Assembly: GCA_038915815.1 (NCBI GenBank)
Contig: JBCLCL010000003.1
Location: 7,015-71,014 of the forward strand
Reading direction: 5' to 3'
Source: Candidatus Limnocylindrales bacterium
GTDB lineage: Bacteria; Chloroflexota; Limnocylindria; Limnocylindrales; CSP1-4
DNA: 64,000 nt
Position numbers and translations under genes: made by a program. Positions 23,936 through 33,406 of the stretch are shown piece after piece (position 1 is the first letter of the stretch; the number at the start of each line of letters is the position of its first letter). A model generated the notes under the pieces. It saw nothing but the letters and a program-made list of their open reading frames with translations, ran no database searches and was not told where the DNA came from.

Positions 23936-24193
23936 ATGCACATGCGCAACCTTGAACGTCGCGTCCAGCTTCTCCTCGACGAACCCCGCTTCCGGAAGGT
24001 GGCAGGCGAGGCAGGGCGCCGCCACGTGTCGGTGGCGGCGGTCATCCGCGAGGCGATCGATCGGTTGCCGGCAGGGGCCGATCAGCGTCGAGCCGCGATC
24101 GCCGAGATCCTCGCGGCCGAGCCGATGCCGCTGCCAGCTGATCCGGCCGAGCTCCGGCGTGAGCTGGACGTCGCCCGCGAGCGAGCGGGATGA
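23936..24193 (+). CDS. vapB: Type II antitoxin (VapB-like, ribbon-helix-helix)
   Basis: 85 aa. ATGA overlap with a downstream PIN gene. Typical TA architecture. Confidence 0.7.
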   Translation: MHMRNLERRVQLLLDEPRFRKVAGEAGRRHVSVAAVIREAIDRLPAGADQRRAAIAEILAAEPMPLPADPAELRRELDVARERAG

Positions 24194-24618
24194 TCATCCT
24201 CGACACGACGATCCTCGCCTACGCGGTCGGGGGCGAGCATCCCTTCCGCGATGCCTGCCGCCGGCTGCTTGAGGCGCACGCTGACGGTCGAGTCGAGGCG
24301 ACCACGACCGTCGAGGTGATCCAGGAGTTCGCTCACATTCGGGCCCGCCGTCAACCCCGGCCGGACGCCGTCCATCTCGCGCGTCAGTACGCGGCCGCCC
24401 TCAACATCCTGGTCACGACGCCAGACGATCTGGACCGCGGCCTCGGCTTGTTCGAGCGGTACCCCGCGCTCGGCGCGTTCGATTCGGTACTGGCGGCCGT
24501 CGCCCTGGGGCACCGCGCGCAGGCGCTCGTCTCCGCCGACAGAGCGTTCGCCTCCGTCCCGGGCCTGCCGTGGGTCGACCCTGCCACTCCCGCCCTGCTG
24601 CGACTCCTCGGGGACTAA
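24190..24618 (+). CDS. vapC: PIN-domain toxin VapC
   Basis: N-terminal ILDTTIL (first acidic residue) and the rest of the PIN acidic quartet. 142 aa. Confidence 0.8.
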   Translation: MIILDTTILAYAVGGEHPFRDACRRLLEAHADGRVEATTTVEVIQEFAHIRARRQPRPDAVHLARQYAAALNILVTTPDDLDRGLGLFERYPALGAFDSVLAAVALGHRAQALVSADRAFASVPGLPWVDPATPALLRLLGD

Positions 24619-24688
24619 CGGACAAGACCTGCGTGGCGGGTTGGTTGAGGTCGTCGCGTCGCCCGGGCTAGAATGGCGACTCTCCCGA

Positions 24689-24764
24689 GCGGGAGTAACT
24701 CAGCTGGCAGAGTGTCTGCTTCCCAAGCAGAATGTCGCGGGTTCGAATCCCGTCTCCCGCTCCA
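24689..24764 (+). tRNA. tRNA-Gly (anticodon CCC)
   Basis: 76-nt cloverleaf. Acceptor GCGGGAG/CTCCCGC, D-arm, anticodon stem TCTGC/GCAGA with loop TTCCCAA, T-arm GGTTCGAATCC, and an encoded CCA end. Confidence 0.9.
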
Positions 24765-24767
24765 CTT
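24719..24767 (+). repeat. attL: 49-bp direct repeat (3' half of tRNA-Gly)
   Basis: cttcccaagcagaatgtcgcgggttcgaatcccgtctcccgctccactt recurs at 29874..29922 with a single mismatch. Confidence 0.85.
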
Positions 24768-25039
24768 CCCAATCCGTGCTCACGGACTGACTGTCGGCGT
24801 CAACTGACGCTCGTCAAGCCCGAAGATTGAGCGGAGTTGTGGGGTGAAGGGCGGTTGACCGGTACCCGGCCTCGCCGGAGATCACCGCATCGATCGGCCG
24901 ACGACATTCTGCCCACCGGAGTCGCGTGCTCCGCGGGACATTCTGCTCAAGATCCGAGCCAGTCGATCCCGACCGCCGGGTGGGCCGAACGGGGCGACGC
25001 ACGGAGTCGCCCGGCGGGTTCCGGCGAAGGATCTCGACC

Positions 25040-26119
25040 ATGGCCTACCCGTACGACGGCGAGCCGAACCTACGCCCCGGCGCCGAGCGCGCCGCCCACA
25101 GCCTCGCCCCGCGCTTCGACCCGGAGCTCGCGCTCAACGAGCTGTTCGAGGACTTCCTCGCGGGCTCCGCCTCGCTCATCAACGCACGGACCGAGCGCAC
25201 CTACCGCTACGACTGGGGCCTGTACCGGGCGTGGCTCACCGAGACCGCCACGCCGGCCGTGCTCGGCACGATCACCAAGCAGCACCTCATCGACTACATC
25301 GCCTTCCTCCAGCGCCGGCCGAAGGCCAAGGGCAGGGGCACCCTCTCGTCGCACTCGGTCCACGCCTACGTCCGGGTCATCCGGACGTTCGTGCGCTGGC
25401 TGGTGACCGAGACCTACTACCCGATCGATCCGCTCGCCGGGGGCAAGCGCGGCGCGATGCCGCGTCTCGGGCCGCGCGTGCTCAAGGTCGCCAAGTCGAC
25501 CGACGTCGAGACCCTGCTGGCAGGGTCCGCCAAGGGCGAGGCGCGCGGCGCGATCGAGCGGGCGGGCCGGGGACGCGACGAGTTCATCGTCGTCCTGGTG
25601 ACCGACACCGGGCTGCGCAACAGCGAGGTCTGCGCCCTGCGGGTCGGCGACGTCGACGTGGCCGACGGCTGGGTCCTGGTCAAGGCCGGCAAGTGGGACC
25701 GCGAACGGCGCGTCCCGCTCAGTCGCGAGACGGTCGCGGCGCTGCGCCTCTACCTGCGGCGCAACCGGCCCGTCCTGTCGGGGCGGGCGCCCGAGTTCGT
25801 CGCCGCGGACGACGTGCTCGTGCTGTCGCGGACCGGCGCGCCGCTCACGCCCCCGGGCCTCTACCAGGCGATGGGCCGCGCCTATCGCCGGGGCGGGGGG
25901 ACCGGCCGGTTCGGCCTCCACCGCCTGCGCCACCTGTGGGGGACGACCGCCGCCGAGGGCGGGATGCACCCGCGCATCAGCCAGTCGATCATGGGCCACG
26001 AGGACGAGAAGAGCGAGCGCGTCTACCAGCACCCGTCGGACACCGCGATCAAGCGCGAGCACGCCCGGGTGACGCCGCTGCGCGACCTCGCCCCCGCCTG
26101 TCGCCGGCGGCTCGCGTAG
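25040..26119 (+). CDS. Tyrosine-type site-specific recombinase / phage integrase
   Basis: N-terminal SAM-like core-binding domain. Catalytic-domain motifs (R...HxLRH: GLHRLRHLWGT) and C-terminal Tyr (RVYQHPS). Confidence 0.85.
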   Translation: MAYPYDGEPNLRPGAERAAHSLAPRFDPELALNELFEDFLAGSASLINARTERTYRYDWGLYRAWLTETATPAVLGTITKQHLIDYIAFLQRRPKAKGRGTLSSHSVHAYVRVIRTFVRWLVTETYYPIDPLAGGKRGAMPRLGPRVLKVAKSTDVETLLAGSAKGEARGAIERAGRGRDEFIVVLVTDTGLRNSEVCALRVGDVDVADGWVLVKAGKWDRERRVPLSRETVAALRLYLRRNRPVLSGRAPEFVAADDVLVLSRTGAPLTPPGLYQAMGRAYRRGGGTGRFGLHRLRHLWGTTAAEGGMHPRISQSIMGHEDEKSERVYQHPSDTAIKREHARVTPLRDLAPACRRRLA

Positions 26120-26129
26120 GTTAAAACGG

Positions 26130-27044
26130 TCACGGTTGGGCGGCTTCCTCGGGATTCTGAGGGCTTGACTCGCGAAGGCCAGCGATAGTTGCGTCGGCGA
26201 GGTCTCTGAGGCGTTGAAGCTGCTCTACCACGACGCTGCGCGAGTTGTCCGAGAGATCGCCGCGTTCCCAAGCATCCGACACCTGATCGAGAACGCGCCC
26301 CTCAATAGCCCACGCTTGAGACAGAGTCGCGGTTAGCCGCTCGGCCGACGCGAGATGCTCCTCTCTTGGTTCTCGTCGCCGTTCCTTGATGTCCGCGAGC
26401 AGGTCGCCTCGCCCATTCGCAGACATGATGCCGGCGAGCTTGGCAGCCCCGTCTTGAGCGACCATCGGTCCATGGCGGGTCGCGTGTGCGCACCATCGGA
26501 CCGCGAGTTGCCCTTGCCCCTCGGCATCGAGTGCAACCAGTCGTGACGGCCGAGTCTCCGGGCCGAGTAGAGACGGCAAGTACACCGAAAACGCTCGTTG
26601 GAGCTCGACGATACCGCCGTCGAAGCCCAACTCTTCGTCCGGTGGCAGGGCGAACAAACCGAAGTTGCCGGGCCGCACATCACCGATTTCCGCCGCAGGC
26701 GCTGGTCGCACGGCCGCGAGGACCACCCGACCGCGGGGTCGGCCACCCTCGCGACGACCCTGAAGACTCTCCATCTCGCAATCGTCCGTGAGGATGATCG
26801 CTCGGCGAGGATTGCCGAAGCCGAGCGCTGCGTCACCGAACTCTGCGTGGCTGGCGATCACATCCTTGCCGGGTTCCCGCCCACTGTGCGGTAGCGTCGC
26901 ACGAGGGACGTAAACGACGCTGCCCCCCTTAGGTCGCGGTTCGAGGGCAATCGCATCGTGACGAAGGTAGAGGTCGAAGAGCCAGGTCGCCTCAAGCACA
27001 TCTCCGAAGCCGAGGCGTTCGTCTGGAGCTGGTGTTCGATACAC
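26130..27044 (-). CDS. Hypothetical protein (island cargo gene C, 304 aa)
   Basis: Good codon bias. GTG start 6 nt after the gene-B stop and in the same frame. No domain recognisable by eye. An acidic cluster ILTDDCEMES is present. Confidence 0.55.
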   Translation of the reverse strand: MYRTPAPDERLGFGDVLEATWLFDLYLRHDAIALEPRPKGGSVVYVPRATLPHSGREPGKDVIASHAEFGDAALGFGNPRRAIILTDDCEMESLQGRREGGRPRGRVVLAAVRPAPAAEIGDVRPGNFGLFALPPDEELGFDGGIVELQRAFSVYLPSLLGPETRPSRLVALDAEGQGQLAVRWCAHATRHGPMVAQDGAAKLAGIMSANGRGDLLADIKERRREPREEHLASAERLTATLSQAWAIEGRVLDQVSDAWERGDLSDNSRSVVVEQLQRLRDLADATIAGLRESSPQNPEEAAQP

Positions 27045-27050
27045 CTCCGA

Positions 27051-28217
27051 TCACCGTGTGCGGCGGTCGTAGAGGCTGAGATCGACGCCATAACGGGCGA
27101 GATCTGGCTGCCAAGCATCGATGCCCTCCAGTCCGGCGGCTACTTCTTCCAGCAGCCCAGGCTCGGACGGGACAGCCGGCTGATAGTGGAAGTCGGCCCA
27201 CGCTCGCTCTGACTCGCCCACAAGAAACGCCGACCAGGAATCCTGACCGAACGCCTCATCCCGAAGGATGGCGTCAGCGCGCCGTCGGAACTCAGCAACG
27301 GCCTCGGGCGACATGACGAGTAGAAACTCCCAATCGTCTTCCACGGGATCGCCTTCTTCGACGGCATGGATACTCTTTTCCATCCGCATGGCGGCCGCGA
27401 CTCGTTCCGAAGTTCGGGCATCAACGGTCGGCGCGAGATACCGAATGAACTGCACGATCTTCCCGAAGGCACCTGCCTCGATGATGCCCAGGACCTCGTC
27501 TACCTCGCTGCTGGAAACGGTCGGTCTGACCTCGGTCTCGAGCATCGTTGCTCGATGACGAACGGCGTTGTGGAAGAGACCTTCAAGTTCGTCCAGGCGA
27601 CCCTCCGCCAACAGGTCGGCCACCTCCACCGTGCGCTGACGGCACAGGTCCGCGGCAACCCGCATGTTCCGGGCAGCGAGTCGGTGCAAGAAGGCGACGC
27701 GATCCCCGATGGTGGCGAGCCTCTCTGGAGGAGGTTCCTCCCCCGCTCGAAACTCGTAGTAGCGACGCGTAGACACCCCGATCAGCTTCGCGAGAGCCCG
27801 AGCGCTCAGATTCAGCTCTTGGCGGAGTCGGTCGAGTGCCTCACGAATCGCGGCCGCGGATAGGCCGACAACCTGCTCAGTTGCGGCCGGCAACGTTGGC
27901 TTCGCGATCCAACGGACGGATAGGCTCCGACTTGGCGGGCCGATCTGGGTATGCGCGGCCAGAAGACCGGCCGAGATCGCGCCGGGCGCCGAAATGAAGG
28001 TGGGCGCGCCCTCCGGGTAGATCTCGCAGAATCGGAACGCGACGTCACTTGGATCGGTGGGCCAGAGGAACTCATCAGAGCCCGAGTACAAGCGGTTGAC
28101 CACGTCTGCGTCGAGAAGGGTCCAGTCGCCAGGCTCCGACCGTTCGGTCAAAGGCATCCCATTTGGCAGCGAATGCCGCGCGAGCGCTGGCTCCCACAAC
28201 CCAATCGGTGTCGTCAT
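27051..28217 (-). CDS. Hypothetical protein with central Xre-type helix-turn-helix (island cargo gene B, 388 aa)
   Basis: ATGA overlap with gene A. HTH segment LSARALAKLIGVSTRRYYEFRAG flanked by an unknown N-terminal ~120-aa domain and a C-terminal ~230-aa domain. Confidence 0.6.
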   Translation of the reverse strand: MTTPIGLWEPALARHSLPNGMPLTERSEPGDWTLLDADVVNRLYSGSDEFLWPTDPSDVAFRFCEIYPEGAPTFISAPGAISAGLLAAHTQIGPPSRSLSVRWIAKPTLPAATEQVVGLSAAAIREALDRLRQELNLSARALAKLIGVSTRRYYEFRAGEEPPPERLATIGDRVAFLHRLAARNMRVAADLCRQRTVEVADLLAEGRLDELEGLFHNAVRHRATMLETEVRPTVSSSEVDEVLGIIEAGAFGKIVQFIRYLAPTVDARTSERVAAAMRMEKSIHAVEEGDPVEDDWEFLLVMSPEAVAEFRRRADAILRDEAFGQDSWSAFLVGESERAWADFHYQPAVPSEPGLLEEVAAGLEGIDAWQPDLARYGVDLSLYDRRTR

Positions 28218-28993
28218 TCACCAGTCCCCCCAAGCATCTCGATCGCGGCCGGCGTGATGCTCCGCCGGAAGAGGTTCCAAGCCCATCGATGGTAGAGGTC
28301 AGCGCGTGCCAGCAGCTCATCGACCACGAAAGGAACATGTTGCTCGGTGAAGATGTCGGTATCCATGACATAGGTTGACGGATACTCCGCCCCGGCTGGG
28401 TTCCTCACGAATCCATAAGTCAGGTTGATCCCGTTGTCATCGATTGACATGGACACCTGCTGGATGCTGCGCTTTACACGCGCATCGATCCAAGGAGCGT
28501 TGGCATCGCCGAATAGGCTCGGTGCGATGTACCTCTGCCAATCAGGAACCGCCACCGCCTCCGCGCTCACGATCTCGTCCACGTACCGAATCCCGAGACG
28601 CTCGACACGGGTCACCCGTCCTCGGGCGACGACGATCTCCAAGAGTTCTCGCAGCCGATCCCGAAAGTCGACCCACGAGTCGTAGCGCGTTGTCTCCAAG
28701 CTGGCCATGTCCGGGCCTACGCTGACGACCCAGGTACCCGTTTCATCTCCGAAACGCGCCGGCCCTGGTTGAACGACCGGCGGGATAGGCGCGCCGGGGC
28801 CCGCGACGATCGTCATCTCTTGAATCCGCGGTAGCGACGTGGGGTAGCGCGTCGACAATGCGGTTTGCGTAGCCGCAAGGCCGGTCGGATCCGCCAACGC
28901 GTAGGCCGGTGGAAACCGAATCTGGGCGACCACGACCTTCAGCGGATTCCGCACGAACACGATCCGCTCATGGGTCTCTTGGTCGAATGTCAC
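28214..28993 (-). CDS. Hypothetical protein (island cargo gene A, 259 aa); N-terminus resembles the uncharacterised TIGR04255-type family
   Basis: AGGAGG SD 6 nt before the GTG start. N-terminal motif NPLKVVVAQIRFPP. First gene of the three-gene minus-strand cassette. Confidence 0.6.
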   Translation of the reverse strand: MTFDQETHERIVFVRNPLKVVVAQIRFPPAYALADPTGLAATQTALSTRYPTSLPRIQEMTIVAGPGAPIPPVVQPGPARFGDETGTWVVSVGPDMASLETTRYDSWVDFRDRLRELLEIVVARGRVTRVERLGIRYVDEIVSAEAVAVPDWQRYIAPSLFGDANAPWIDARVKRSIQQVSMSIDDNGINLTYGFVRNPAGAEYPSTYVMDTDIFTEQHVPFVVDELLARADLYHRWAWNLFRRSITPAAIEMLGGTGE

Positions 28994-29048
28994 CTCGAAC
29001 CTCCTGATCGCACATCCATCGCACTAACTGACACAGATCATAGTCGGT

Positions 29049-29822
29049 GTGCGGTTGGCGTGCGTCAAGATGCCGTTGGTCCTATTTGACGATGCGCCCT
29101 GCTTCACACAGGAACTCGCCGAGAGGGCATCTCACCATCGATTTGGCTGGCGAGCGGCGTACGACGAGGCGGTTGCGCTGGCCATCGGCCTCGATGACCC
29201 ATTCCGGCTCGGGATGGTCCTGTCGATGCGGGCGTGGGCCGAGGCCCCGGTCGACCCGGTCGCGGCCGAGGGCTGGCTGGAGCAGGCGGCCGAGGCCGCA
29301 CGCCGGACAGGCAACCCCGGGGCGATCGCCAGCCTCATGCTGATCCGCGGACGCATCGCCAGCGGTATCGATCGGCATTCGGACGCCCAGCGATGGTTCC
29401 GGGAGGCGCAGGCACAATTCCAGGCCGTCGGCGACACGCGGTTGGAGATCTCAGCCCAGAGCGAACTTGCGCATTCGCTCCGCCGCGCCGGCGCCACCGA
29501 CGAGGCCGAGGCGGAGTACCGTCACACGATCCTCGGGTGGCAGCGCAGTGGCAACCGCGGGGCGGTCGCCAACCAGCTGGAGTCGCTCGCGTTCACGGCG
29601 CTGCCCAGGGGTGACGGCGTCCAGGCGGCCCGCCTGCTCGGTGCCGCGGAAGCCCTGCGCGAGGCCGCCAAGGACCCCATGACAGCCTTCGAGCGCGCGG
29701 AGTACGACACCGAGGTGGCGCGTTTGCGCACGCAGCTCGACCCGCAGACCCTGAGTGACGCGGGGGCCGAGGGCCGCGCGCTTTCGATGGATGACGCCGT
29801 CATGTTCGCCATCTCCGGGTGA
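29049..29822 (+). pseudogene. 3' fragment of a large STAND/TPR-type regulator (C-terminal TPR region only)
   Basis: The translation ends ...AEGRALSMDDAVMFAISG, the characteristic C-terminus of actinobacterial ATPase-TPR (AfsR/cyclase-ATPase-like) regulators. No ATPase/N-terminal domains are present. It lies just inside attR. Confidence 0.45.
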
Positions 29823-29873
29823 CTCAGGCGTTCACACCTTCCGCACGACACCATGACGCTCACGAGCTCAGGA

Positions 29874-29922
29874 CTTCCCAAGCAGAATGTCGCGGGTTCG
29901 ATTCCCGTCTCCCGCTCCACTT
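29874..29922 (+). repeat. attR: 49-bp direct repeat of tRNA-Gly 3' end
   Basis: 48/49 identity with 24719..24767 (gaatcc vs gattcc). Confidence 0.85.
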
Positions 29923-30015: not shown

Positions 30016-30252
30016 ATGGCGGAGATCGGGGTCAAGGAGCTGAAGGCGACTGCGTCCGCGGTGATCGAGCAGGTCGAGGGCGGTGCCGCATACATCATCA
30101 CCAAGCGCGGCCGCCCCGCTGCGGTCCTGCTGCCGGTCGACGAAGCCGAGGATCTCGTCCTTGCCAACGCCGACGAGTACGTGCGGATGCGCCGCGAAGC
30201 TCGTGCGGCCTACGCCAAGGGTCGGACGACCAGCCTCGGGGATCTCGTCTGA
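30016..30252 (+). CDS. Phd/YefM-family type II antitoxin
   Basis: 78 aa. MAEIGVKELKA... YIITKRGRPAAVLLPVDEAEDL is the canonical Phd/YefM motif. Confidence 0.8.
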   Translation: MAEIGVKELKATASAVIEQVEGGAAYIITKRGRPAAVLLPVDEAEDLVLANADEYVRMRREARAAYAKGRTTSLGDLV

Positions 30253-30545
30253 GTCCGTATCGCGTCGAGCTCGGGCCGTCGGCAGCCAAGGCGTTCAAGA
30301 AGTTGCCGCCCGAGGTCCGTGCCAGGGTGCAGCAAGCTCTTGAGAAGCTGGGACGGGACGTCGCGCCGCCGGGTCGCATCGGCGGCAAGGCCGTCAAGAC
30401 GATCCAGGGTGTGGGCGACTCGTTCCACCGACTCCGCGTCGGCGACTCCCGGGTGATGTACGACGTCATCGACGAAGACCAGGTGATCCTGGTCCTTGGC
30501 ATCGTTCATCGCGGCGACCTCGAGCGGTGGCTTCGGAACCGATAG
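30249..30545 (+). CDS. RelE/ParE-family type II toxin
   Basis: SPYRVELGPSAAKAFKKLPPEVRARVQQALEKL... is the canonical ParE/RelE N-terminus. Start codon uncertain (CTG 30249 or TTG 30303). Overlaps the antitoxin stop. Confidence 0.7.
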   Translation: MSPYRVELGPSAAKAFKKLPPEVRARVQQALEKLGRDVAPPGRIGGKAVKTIQGVGDSFHRLRVGDSRVMYDVIDEDQVILVLGIVHRGDLERWLRNR

Positions 30546-30559
30546 CGCGGACGGGGAAC

Positions 30560-30930
30560 GGGCCAATGCGCCAGCTCCCTCCGGGACAAGGTCACCCGGA
30601 AGCCGGTCGATAAGCGCTGGCGGACGCTGCGGGAGGCAGCGTCGGAGACGGCCGACCCGGATCGACCTGCCGGATGATCGGCCTCGACACGTCGGTCATC
30701 GTGCGCTACCTGGTCGGAACGCCGCCATCCCAGGCGCGGCGCGCGACCGCCATCGTCGATGGCGCGGACGACCTGTGCCGTGGAGGCGCTGGTCCGCGCG
30801 CGATCGGTGCCGGGGAGCCCGATCCCGGATGCGTTCATCGCGGCGACCGCACGATGGGCGGGCGCCGTGCCCCTGTATGCGTTCGACGAGGGGCTGCATC
30901 GTCACGGCACGCCCGTGGCGACACCCTGAC
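30560..30930 (+). pseudogene. Degraded VapBC module (antitoxin remnant plus frameshifted/internally deleted PIN domain)
   Basis: MIGLDTSVIVRYL (PIN N-terminus) at 30674 in one frame. PIPDAFIAATARWAGAVPLYAFD (PIN C-terminus) in another frame ~30780-30930. Total too short for an intact PIN. Short upstream antitoxin-like remnant. Confidence 0.5.
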
Positions 30931-30939
30931 CGTTCGACC

Positions 30940-31341
30940 TCAGTCGGGCTCGATCCGTCGAACCGTGGTGACCCGGTCGATCGAGCGGTCGAAGGAGGCG
31001 ATCGTGCCCACCCCGGTTCGCTCGGCCGAGGCGACCAGGTAGGCCTCGGCGAAGTCGAGCCGGTCGTGCTCGTAGACCTCGATCGCCCGGTGCAGGAGGT
31101 CGCGATCGACGACCTCGATCGGGGGAAAGGCCAGGATCGCGCGCAGGATGCCGGCGACGGCGGGACGCGGCGCCTCGTAGTAGGACTCGAGCACGTAGGC
31201 CACTTCGGCGAGGATGAGATCGGCCAGGAGCATTGCCTCGGCGCGCTCCAGGAACCGCGTCGCGCGCTCGGCCTGGTCCGGTGGGTCGCCCGTGACGTGA
31301 CGCACGAGGACGTTCGTGTCGACGAACATCGACGCCGTCAT
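30940..31341 (-). CDS. vapC: PIN-domain toxin VapC
   Basis: MFVDTNVLVRH... with PIN acidic residues. 133 aa. Confidence 0.8.
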   Translation of the reverse strand: MTASMFVDTNVLVRHVTGDPPDQAERATRFLERAEAMLLADLILAEVAYVLESYYEAPRPAVAGILRAILAFPPIEVVDRDLLHRAIEVYEHDRLDFAEAYLVASAERTGVGTIASFDRSIDRVTTVRRIEPD

Positions 31342-31586
31342 GGGCGCTCGGCGGCGCGGGCTCGTCGGGTCTCGCGAAGGACGCCTGACCAGGGTGTGCC
31401 GCGCTTCGCGGCCGGGACCGGGATCGAGCCGGCCAGGGCGAGCAGGTCGGGCGTCCGCGCCAGGACAGCTCGCTCGCCCTCGACTCGAAAGACGACGCGG
31501 TCGCCGTCCTTGAGGTCGAGCGCCTTCCGAACCGCGCTCGGGACCGTGATCTGGCCCTTCGATGTCATGCGCGCCGAGATCTCCAT
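31338..31586 (-). CDS. vapB: AbrB/MazE/SpoVT-type antitoxin (VapB)
   Basis: SKGQITVPSAVRKALDLKDGDRVVF is the swapped-hairpin AbrB motif. ATGA overlap with vapC. Confidence 0.8.
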   Translation of the reverse strand: MEISARMTSKGQITVPSAVRKALDLKDGDRVVFRVEGERAVLARTPDLLALAGSIPVPAAKRGTPWSGVLRETRRARAAERP

Positions 31587-32980: not shown

Positions 32981-33406
32981 TCAGCCGAACGGATTCTCGA
33001 TGCGGACGCCGCCGATGGAGCGTCCGCCCTGGAGGTCCTCGGTCATCAGGCGCGTCGCACCGGCGCGTCTCGCCGCCTCGATGACCAGCGTGTCCCAGTA
33101 CGAGAGGTGGTGCCGTTCCTCGAGCTGCGATGCCGCCAGGATGAGCGGCAGATCCACCTGGACGAGCGGCCAGCTGCCGTACAGGGCGACGACCTCGCGG
33201 GCGGCGCGGCGGCTCATCGGCGGGTCGAACTTGCGCGTCGCGACAACGTAGAACTCCTGGAGGATCTGGGTGCTGAGCGCCCCGGTCCGGGTCGCCCACA
33301 GCTCTTCGAGCAGCGCCCGGGCGATCGGCTGCTTCCGGACCTCCGAACGGTCATGCGCATAGACGAGGATGTTCGTGTCGACGAACGTCAGCGCGCCGGC
33401 GACCAT
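32981..33406 (-). CDS. vapC: PIN-domain toxin VapC
   Basis: FVDTNILVYAHD..., conserved PIN acidic quartet. 141 aa. Confidence 0.8.
   Translation of the reverse strand: MVAGALTFVDTNILVYAHDRSEVRKQPIARALLEELWATRTGALSTQILQEFYVVATRKFDPPMSRRAAREVVALYGSWPLVQVDLPLILAASQLEERHHLSYWDTLVIEAARRAGATRLMTEDLQGGRSIGGVRIENPFG

Follow-up and report, generated by a model that had tools for sequence, protein, structure and literature searches.

The tRNA-Gly(CCC) gene of a Limnocylindrales-like member of the Chloroflexota houses a 5155-bp integrative island, whose own tyrosine integrase very probably carried out the insertion. The island is an ordinary, textbook kind of element, whereas the three-gene cassette that it carries is a possible new toxin-antitoxin or defence module. 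Of the two, the cassette is the more useful lead: it is testable by heterologous expression and would offer a first way into the TIGR04255 family, which is unannotated.

The window, that is, the whole 64-kb stretch of DNA analysed, contains at 24689-24764 (+) a single tRNA-Gly(CCC) gene on which ARAGORN and Rfam agree (RF00005, 68.2 bits). A sequence-only reading had associated this gene with a 49-bp direct repeat carrying one mismatch, and alignment of 24719-24767 against 29874-29922 reproduced the claim exactly. Both copies lie on the same strand with a start-to-start spacing of 5155 bp, extend from tRNA nt 31 to nt 76 plus three nucleotides (CTT) past the CCA end, and differ only at core position 29 (tRNA nt 59), with A at 24747 and T at 29902. 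The 49-mer gave 0 matches, with up to 3 mismatches allowed, in 100 dinucleotide-preserving shuffles of the window, and no third or degenerate copy of the core occurs within the 64 kb. The displaced copy at 29874-29922 is not called as a tRNA by Rfam. The features of the island and its target are as follows:

24689..24764, +, tRNA-Gly(CCC), regenerated target; nt 1-30 native, nt 31-76 island-supplied (A59) (ARAGORN, Rfam, alleles)
24719..24767, +, attL core, 49-nt identity block (repeat; start of homology in sister assembly L002)
24768..25039, +, left arm (P' arm of attP) and region upstream of the integrase (blocks conserved in two diverged relatives)
24903..24912, -, inverted copy 1 of the core decamer GCAGAATGTC (GACATTCTGCCC on the + strand), candidate integrase-binding box (decamer search, conservation)
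24937..24946, -, inverted copy 2 of GCAGAATGTC, candidate integrase-binding box (decamer search, conservation)
25040..26119, +, tyrosine integrase, 359 aa (PF00589, E 9e-25; phrog_1 integrase; catalytic motifs)
26130..27044, -, cassette gene C, 304 aa, putative toxin/effector (predicted fold)
27051..28217, -, cassette gene B, 388 aa, putative regulator/antitoxin/sensor (HTH_3, E 1.7e-4; alignment)
28214..28993, -, cassette gene A, 259 aa, TIGR04255 family, first gene of the operon (NCBIfam)
29049..29822, +, TPR ORF, 257 aa (homology from residue ~26; C-terminal matches)
29848..29873, +, right arm adjoining the core (P arm), 18-26 nt of it also at the right end of further elements
29874..29922, +, attR core, displaced native tRNA 3' fragment (T59), joined to the native right flank (repeat, empty-site identity)

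The limits of the island are established by sister genomes, all of which are draft assemblies and probably MAGs. In at least four near-identical assemblies (L082/L092, L084, L099 and L100) the tRNA-Gly site is empty and agrees base for base, across both junctions, with the window once 5155 bp are taken out; the flanks of the conspecific assemblies are 97.6-99.99% identical to the window, and those of the four with the empty site 97.6-99.9%. In the sister assembly L002 homology to the window begins at exactly position 24719. The empty site that the sequence-only reading had suggested looking for in related genomes is thus found, exact to the base, and bears out the proposed attL-int...attR arrangement. 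No relative was found that carries the 5 kb without the repeat, nor do the relatives all share the repeat as a fixed tRNA fragment.

The single mismatch is informative as to the origin of the two halves of the tRNA gene. T59 is found in every empty site and every attR, and A59 in every tRNA that precedes an element of the 3' type; the attR core shows no difference from the 3' half of the tRNA in genomes with an empty site. This pattern indicates that the island brought the present 3' half of the tRNA: judged from the alleles, the native 3' half is the attR copy and that of the working tRNA came with the island. It also places the strand exchange to the left of nt 59 and brackets it between nt 31 and nt 58. 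The identity blocks of 3'-type elements start at nt 31 and those of 5'-type elements end at nt 40, overlapping only around the anticodon loop, within which strand exchange is probably located.

These data show that the attP of the circular element contained a copy of tRNA nt 31-76. Its recombination with the chromosomal tRNA linked the island's copy of the 3' half to the 30 native nucleotides at the 5' end, leaving the tRNA intact (attL, A59), and displaced the native 3' half 5.15 kb downstream (attR, T59). In the proposed model, strands would be exchanged in the anticodon loop, with the integrase binding a GCAGAATGTC half-site beside the loop together with its two inverted left-arm copies. 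The exact decamer occurs only four times in the 64 kb, in the two cores and the two left-arm boxes, the latter being spaced by about 35 nt. Unrelated metagenomes contain two relatives of the integrase, with 72% and 63% identity, each ~260 nt downstream of a tRNA-Gly(CCC), and both share the two GACATTCTGCCC boxes though the surrounding DNA has diverged; the decamer box is conserved in L114 and L115. On the right arm, 18-26 nt next to the core (ACGCTCACGAGCTCAGGA) recur where further elements inserted at the tRNA-Gly site have their right ends.

The integrase gene lies, as had been claimed, immediately inside the tRNA-proximal end and reads inward: its ORF, a PF00589 member whose ATG at 25040 was read from the sequence, starts 272 bp in. 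The catalytic set R193, K215/K218, H294, R297, H320 and Y329 (R-K-H-R-H-Y) is complete. The ORF is intact, with all catalytic residues kept, in the four assemblies retrieved out of four; the protein is identical in two of them and differs by 2 substitutions in L086 and by a 3-aa insertion in L083.

Among some 14 draft assemblies of a single uncultured species the tRNA-Gly(CCC) gene is occupied in various ways, with at least six different occupants as well as tandem arrays. Because the genomes are drafts, the arrays in L002 and L083 might conceivably result from erroneous joining at the repeat. Genes carried by other occupants encode a Drt6/Drt4-class reverse transcriptase (DRT; E 2e-142) and a type IV restriction-like enzyme together with a Dcm methyltransferase; integrase-less islets and elements targeting the tRNA 5' half are also present. 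The island is of value as a clean worked example: within one species-level population of an uncultured Chloroflexota lineage the tRNA gene is seen with an empty attB, with the island in place, in tandem arrays, with islets that lack an integrase, and with elements of both the 3'- and the 5'-fragment type, and these states combined delimit the crossover region without experiment.

The island may still be able to excise. No attP junction or excised circle was found, also not in IMG/VR. The island and its flanks diverge about equally among sister genomes (99.6-100% versus 99.3-99.99% in L086/L096, L083/L093 and L002/L097), which would fit vertical inheritance after one integration equally well as ongoing mobility. 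An alternative to be taken seriously, though the balance leans against it, is that the island integrated a single time long ago and persists in one sub-lineage as a fixed remnant unable to move, with ancestral empty sites and an integrase that no longer excises. This parallel divergence would be expected of such a remnant; likewise, no excisionase (Xis/RDF) is recognisable, the island is known from this one site only, and its truncated TPR gene implies that the element has already undergone rearrangement. However, the integrase is preserved in the four retrieved assemblies, the repeats differ at the attP/attB allele alone, and the many occupants and tandem arrays show a site that is active in the population.

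The cargo is not one block. The TPR ORF is probably the 5'-truncated remnant of a cyclase-STAND NTPase-TPR gene: for all of the best 150 of its 9721 matches the alignment ends at or near the C-terminus of the target, and the full-length relative P0120 combines Guanylate_cyc, NB-ARC/AAA_16 and TPR domains. GC3 is 0.97 for the integrase, 0.85 for the TPR ORF and 0.66-0.73 for genes A, B and C, as compared with 0.89-0.92 for host genes. A low-GC three-gene cassette next to a truncated TPR remnant makes the island a mosaic, composed of a host-like high-GC integrase, the TPR remnant and a recently acquired low-GC A-B-C operon.

In the operon the stop of gene A overlaps the start of gene B by 4 nt. 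Protein A matches TIGR04255 with 125.1 bits (cutoff 30) over residues 14-252 of 259; its invariant Arg/Asp/Glu residues are enzyme-like, and it weakly resembles catalytic domains of the guanidino-kinase or glutamine-synthetase type. Protein B consists of a hypervariable N-terminal region of ~125 aa, a central Xre-type HTH (residues ~126-170) and a helical C-terminal part; the Xre-like HTH was detected in 5 of the 16 family members, and only 12 homologs of B occur among 5.8 billion proteins. Protein C has an N-terminal domain with a predicted MazF/CcdB/Kid fold followed by a C-terminal helical bundle. The fold call comes from a predicted model, which shows the SH3-like barrel of MazF/CcdB and has low-confidence loops at residues 27-33 and 55-77. 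A Pfam search with the 34 members of the C family found no match, including to the PemK_toxin and CcdB profiles, and hhalign of C against E. coli MazF gave a probability of 0.1%. No small antitoxin of the MazE/Kis/CcdA type is adjacent to C, the upstream partners being the 388-aa Xre-HTH and 259-aa TIGR04255 proteins.

The cassette travels as a unit, having been found in at least seven unrelated contexts, and it is strictly co-inherited, sporadic and very rare (between 12 and 41 clusters of homologs among 5.8 billion). Its recurrent neighbours are RhuM, AAA_14/DUF4143, Schlafen/AlbA_2, methyltransferase-restriction and RadC genes; in two contexts (L102, L106) the neighbourhood is one of ordinary metabolism. 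The cassette is absent from IMG/VR and C304 from 72,556 plasmids, and a search of PADLOC-DB 2.0.0 with the integrase, A, B, C and TPR proteins at E <= 0.01 gave no match to known defence models.

A rare, co-inherited cassette that encodes a protein of predicted MazF/CcdB fold and is sited where sister genomes hold DRT and restriction systems constitutes a concrete toxin-antitoxin or defence candidate. We tentatively favour, at somewhat under an even chance, a module of three parts that works in toxin-antitoxin fashion or by abortive infection. In it C would act as toxin, B would bind DNA and serve as regulator, antitoxin or sensor for C, and A would be an accessory of enzyme-like character; the cassette would stabilise the island and/or guard the host against phage, as do the known defence genes that other occupants bring to this hotspot in sister genomes. 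More speculative still is the fuller proposal that the operon at 26130-28993 is a previously undescribed tripartite system of this kind in which the hypervariable N-terminus of B acts as sensor or specificity element. If true, the TIGR04255 family, described as 'sporadic', would gain a first functional context; its distant members likewise lead short operons. Somewhat unlikely, in our view, is a regulatory or metabolic operon in which A is an enzyme, B a transcription factor and C a protein that binds nucleic acid or a ligand. The enzyme-like residues and weak similarities of A, the metabolic surroundings at L102 and L106 and the lack of any defence-model match would agree with it, but not the sporadic, very rare distribution of the cassette, its mobility as a unit between unrelated contexts, its repeated neighbours from RhuM to RadC, the predicted fold of C, or its location in a hotspot shared with DRT and restriction systems.

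The sequence-only reading had considered the island too small for a prophage and called it a minimal cargo island, which holds: PHROGs matches essentially the integrase alone, apart from a marginal second match of the B388 HTH to a transcription regulator (E 0.005), and Pfam reveals no replication, packaging or transfer genes. It is very improbable that the island is a degraded prophage, a phage satellite or the remnant of an integrative conjugative or mobilisable element. A tyrosine integrase beside a tRNA is typical of all these classes and the truncated TPR gene shows the loss of part of an older element. Nevertheless, the island has no capsid, terminase, primase/Rep, replication or packaging-hijack genes (PHROGs, Pfam, NCBIfam), the five ORFs contain no relaxase, coupling protein or T4SS domains (Pfam, NCBIfam), although an oriT may remain, and the absences from IMG/VR and the plasmids point the same way. 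Scarcely credible is a segmental duplication in which the 49-nt copy is a tRNA pseudogene fragment, the 5 kb ordinary chromosome and the empty sites RecA-mediated deletions, since, although homologous deletion between 49-bp repeats also leaves one copy and the four empty sites are perhaps not independent events, it leaves unexplained the confinement of A59 to tRNAs preceding inserted elements, the integrase lineage beside tRNA-Gly(CCC) in unrelated metagenomes, the conserved arm boxes, the foreign composition of the cargo and the many different inserts with the same bounding core.

Compared with MazF/Kid/CcdB type II toxins, protein C lacks a sequence-level family match, is ~3 times larger and bears a C-terminal helical bundle; those systems have a small MazE/AbrB or CcdA antitoxin, whereas the partner of C is a 388-aa Xre-HTH protein and a third gene, of the TIGR04255 family, is obligatory in the cassette. 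The family itself is described in NCBIfam as 'sporadically distributed' and uncharacterised; no function is attached to it and no mention of it was found in the literature searched. Distant plasmid members (24-28% identity) also lead short operons; of the three plasmid loci examined, one has a confirmed Xre-HTH gene in second place, and the third gene differs between lineages.

Defence-carrying integration hotspots have been mapped in the E. coli pan-genome (PMC10121019). There, as here, one site is empty or holds varied elements with varied defence cargo; the cargo of the present island differs in that it matches no known defence system. The tRNA-Gly(CCC) site indicates that such hotspots occur well outside the model Proteobacteria.

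The island itself is closest to the Islander-type islands in tRNA/tmRNA genes, probably to those with anticodon-centred attP (class 'A', Williams 2002; PMC4383910), with which it shares the tRNA-proximal tyrosine integrase, the regenerated tRNA with a displaced direct-orientation 3' fragment, the identity block from anticodon loop to 3' end and the tandem arrays at one tDNA. The defining marks of Islander-type islands were found here: (i) an intact tDNA and a direct-orientation cognate fragment on one replicon, (ii) a tyrosine integrase gene between them, (iii) a presence/absence polymorphism with exact limits in close relatives, and (iv) as the A59/T59 alleles indicate, regeneration of the split target gene by island sequence. 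Islander comprises 3919 islands, of which 3760 have 3' fragments and 159 have 5' fragments, with 2083 anticodon-centred and 125 tandems (PMC4383910). At 5.15 kb the present island is well under the Islander size peaks of 13.6 and 39.9 kb (PMC4383910), and its host belongs to an uncultured Chloroflexota lineage. Elements with 5' fragments, rare in Islander, use the same anticodon loop in the sister genomes studied here.

The only tRNA gene that ARAGORN finds in the window, tRNA-Gly(CCC) (Rfam 68.2 bits), is partly duplicated at the far end of the island. The duplicated part, nucleotides 31-76 of the tRNA followed by CTT, forms a 49-nt direct repeat with a spacing of 5155 bp and one mismatch between its copies (A24747 versus T29902), as found both by the repeat finder and by pattern search. 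Dinucleotide-preserving shuffles gave no match to the repeat (0/100), and the window contains neither a third nor a degenerate copy. The sequence-only reading, which had claimed this repeat and a tyrosine integrase at the tRNA-proximal end, was right on both points. The features of the island are the following, gene C being also designated C304.

24689-24764, plus strand, tRNA-Gly(CCC)
24719-24767, attL core copy of the repeat
25040-26119, plus strand, tyrosine integrase of 359 aa (PF00589, E 9e-25), starting 272 bp inside the tRNA-proximal end
26130-27044, minus strand, cassette gene C, 304 aa, without family match
27051-28217, minus strand, cassette gene B, 388 aa, with a weak central Xre-type HTH
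28214-28993, minus strand, cassette gene A, 259 aa, TIGR04255 (125 bits; cutoff 30)
29049-29822, TPR ORF, 9721 homologues
29874-29922, attR core copy of the repeat

Sister genomes were retrieved by exact-protein look-ups with the integrase, the left-flank VapC and the right-flank Phd, giving about 14 draft assemblies (GCA_038915135 to GCA_038916335), in which the flanks match the window at 97.6-99.99% identity. The empty tRNA-Gly site that had been suggested as a check in related genomes is present in four of them (L082/L092, L084, L099 and L100), where VapC, the tRNA and Phd follow one another without anything in between. Base for base, these sites equal the left flank of the window, tRNA nucleotides 1-30, the attR core copy and the right flank. 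The 5155 bp are a presence/absence polymorphism with precise boundaries, and the divergence of the island tracks that of its flanks.

The direction of the exchange can be read from nucleotide 59 of the tRNA, which is T in every empty site and in every attR copy, and A in every tRNA followed by an insert that duplicates its 3′ part (3′-type). From this pattern, the A59 3′ half came with the island, which pushed the native T59 half out to attR, and strand exchange took place to the left of nucleotide 59. The identity block starts at nucleotide 31, one base ahead of the anticodon loop, and the homology of sister locus L002 to the window starts exactly at 24719. In elements that duplicate the 5′ part of the same tRNA (5′-type) the block ends at nucleotide 40. 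Since the two kinds of block overlap at nucleotides 31-40 only, that is, the anticodon loop and its flanking bases, we infer that the crossover would lie in the anticodon loop. In one assembly the displaced attR fragment (L083:9859-9907) carries an extra G-to-T change (CGCTGG, not CGCGGG), as expected of a fragment no longer selected as part of a tRNA.

The integrase contains the canonical residues R193, K215/K218, H294-x-x-R297, H320 and Y329, and is intact in the four retrieved assemblies that carry the island, being identical in two, with two substitutions in one and with a 3-aa insertion in the other. In a metagenome scan, short contigs of unrelated samples yielded two relatives, with 72% and 63% identity. 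Each of them follows an identical tRNA-Gly(CCC), A59 allele included, at a distance of about 260 nt and in the same orientation, so this integrase lineage is dedicated to that tRNA. The left arms of the island and the two relatives have a mean column identity of 83%, counting the invariant tRNA, and all three diverged arms keep two GACATTCTGCCC boxes about 35 nt apart. In inverted orientation the boxes repeat GCAGAATGTC, which in the core directly follows the anticodon loop on its 3′ side, and the exact decamer occurs in the 64-kb window at the two cores and the two boxes only. Their conservation makes them candidate integrase-binding sites. The tRNA itself holds a near-direct repeat (window 24707-24736, GCAGAGTGTC ... 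GCAGAATGTC) with one copy on either side of the anticodon stem-loop; its second copy is the motif recurring in the island left arm, and the first may be the other core half-site for the integrase. No excisionase-like ORF was recognisable on the island, and neither an attP junction nor C-family genes were found in IMG/VR.

The same tRNA is used by several elements in the sister genomes. All comparison genomes are drafts, probably MAGs, and the tandem arrangements among the following occupants could reflect mis-joins at repeats.

Empty: at least four assemblies
Only this island: GCA_038915965 and GCA_038916205
A 3.0-kb element without integrase, encoding an 852-aa BNR_4 protein, followed by this island: GCA_038916335 (L083:1715-4743)
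A larger element followed by this island: GCA_038915285
2.0-kb integrase-less islet with 426-aa and 74-aa proteins without Pfam match: GCA_038915755.1 (L081:7857-9907)
Element with a 311-aa integrase adjoining the tRNA: sister assemblies
Two elements on the tRNA 5′ side: L095:10470-10539 with L085:9826-9907 (GCA_038915435.1), and L090:3204-3282 (GCA_038915495.1)

The 2.0-kb and 3.0-kb inserts have the same tRNA core repeats at both ends, and at their right ends about 70 nt also occur at the right end of a larger element with an integrase (L002, L087, L088). Such inserts might be what deletions left behind, or a resident integrase could mobilise them in trans. One of the 5′-side elements is about 13.2 kb long and the other carries a DUF3631 gene; their integrases have 320 and 331 aa. 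They duplicate tRNA nucleotides ~1-40, leaving a displaced 5′ fragment that keeps the native promoter and an intact tRNA at the right end. Upstream of this intact tRNA the element end has GGCTAGAAT, resembling the −10 region of the native tRNA promoter (GGGCTAGAAT, window 24666-24675).

Two of these elements carry genes of a defence type. The element with the 311-aa integrase beside the tRNA in GCA_038915285.1 encodes a 543-aa reverse transcriptase (L097:14923-16554; PADLOC Drt6 E 2e-142, Drt4 E 8e-135) that is a defence-associated reverse transcriptase from an uncultured Chloroflexota lineage. The 13.2-kb 5′-side element (L095:10813-16395) has a Mrr_cat-helicase (type IV methyl-directed restriction-like, PADLOC E 8e-37), a 791-aa HATPase_c_3 protein with no PADLOC match, a Dcm-type methyltransferase and an HhH-GPD glycosylase, and these four genes look like a modification-dependent restriction/defence cluster. 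Toxin-antitoxin genes also crowd around the tRNA:

23936-24618, VapB-like/PIN
30016-30545, Phd/ParE
30674-31042, PIN ORF
30940-31586, MazE/PIN
32981-33406, another PIN

A 33-nt repeat, its copies 82% identical, lies at the start of two PIN genes (24185-24217 and 30669-30701). As the toxin-antitoxin genes are present in the empty-site genomes as well, they are chromosomal and outside the island. A contig scan for cross-species empty sites through the upstream PaaK-like ligase returned 78 Chloroflexota loci (75-88% protein identity) and was uninformative for that purpose. Its matches place the organism with Chloroflexota of the Limnocylindrales/'Chloroflexia' MAG type. All of the loci retrieved from other Chloroflexota species lack a tRNA-Gly nearby, and synteny with those species stops right after an enoyl-CoA hydratase (window ~23826); the tRNA-Gly, with the toxin-antitoxin genes crowded around it, is therefore specific to this lineage.

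The cargo of the island is a mosaic. GC falls from about 0.70 to 0.60-0.66 across 26.1-29.1 kb, and GC3 is 0.89-0.92 in the flanking host genes, 0.97 in the integrase, 0.85 in the TPR ORF and 0.66-0.73 in the minus-strand genes A, B and C. In all 150 listed of the 9721 matches to the TPR ORF, the best alignment runs to the C-terminal end of the target or nearly so and begins no earlier than query residue ~26, and the full-length relatives are cyclase-STAND NTPase-TPR proteins. These C-terminal matches and the architecture of the relatives indicate that the TPR ORF is most likely what is left of the 3′ part of a longer gene, truncated at the edge of the low-GC cassette. Paralogy with the nearby 1179-aa cyclase-STAND-TPR gene was not supported, tblastn giving no match in the window at 1e-3.

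Genes A and B overlap by 4 nt (A stop/B start). Homologues of the cassette are very rare: 12 clusters for B, and 34 and 41 for the other two genes, among 5.8 billion proteins. In every retrieved context the three genes stand together with unchanged order and overlaps, in surroundings that are mutually unrelated:

L101: RhuM, AAA_14/DUF4143 and RNase_T exonuclease adjoin
L104: UDG and a Schlafen/AlbA_2 protein adjoin
L105: N6/N4 methyltransferase-restriction fusion and RadC adjoin
L102 and L106-L109: metabolic genes around

The integrase is absent from all these contexts and C is not adjacent to either integrase relative, so integrase and cassette assort independently. In the closest tier A and C are 71-95% identical and B, which diverges faster, 48-86%; the first ~125 residues of B are not alignable to the second tier. 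C304 was skipped by gene callers in some strains, but it is intact everywhere and is not a pseudogene. Apart from TIGR04255 and the weak HTH, nothing in the cargo was matched by PADLOC, PHROGs or Pfam, and PADLOC has no model for the A-B-C cassette. PDB searches with single proteins and profiles gave no match for A, B or C, the plasmid collection contained no C304 homologue, and literature searches found no mention of TIGR04255 or of the assembly accessions.

The predicted structure of C (AlphaFold2, pLDDT 81.5, pTM 0.73) has an N-terminal beta domain (residues ~1-172) and a C-terminal helical bundle, and Foldseek ranks MazF first with it (probability 1.0, E 2e-3). No sequence-level signal links C to the MazF/CcdB families, and hhalign found no similarity between the C family and E. 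coli MazF; hence C is described by its predicted MazF/CcdB fold and is not placed in the MazF family. The invariant residues of the C family (R28, D30, T86-D87-D88-C89-E90, H187, R190 and H191) suggest an active site. Our best reading of the cassette, tentative and somewhat less probable than its converse, is a toxin-antitoxin or abortive-infection module of three parts in which C would be the effector; the hotspot location raises its prior.

Distant plasmid-borne TIGR04255 genes (Chroococcidiopsis, Rhizobium, Paenarthrobacter) are likewise first in short operons. The second gene of the Chroococcidiopsis operon encodes an Xre-HTH protein, a weak homologue of B (hhalign E 9e-5). The third genes of the plasmid operons are unrelated to C by sequence, and hhalign of the C family against that of Chroococcidiopsis found no similarity. 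On plasmid pCB3060_2 of Rhizobium sp. CB3060 the TIGR04255 operon (L119:1180-3477) adjoins genes annotated as multiubiquitin-domain protein, ThiF-family adenylyltransferase and DUF6527, with an IS110 transposase also near. Ubiquitin-like conjugation clusters of the multiubiquitin/ThiF type are linked to anti-phage defence.

As an element, the island is of an ordinary, well-understood kind; it is small, its boundaries are clean, and naturally empty sites confirm it. We infer that it belongs to class A (anticodon-loop crossover) of Islander, the database of tRNA-gene islands, which accounts for 2083 of its 3919 islands. The two 5′-side elements of the sister genomes are of the 5′-fragment type, represented there by only 159 of the 3919. 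The tRNA-Gly site as a whole matches the picture of integration hotspots whose elements carry defence systems (PMC10121019).
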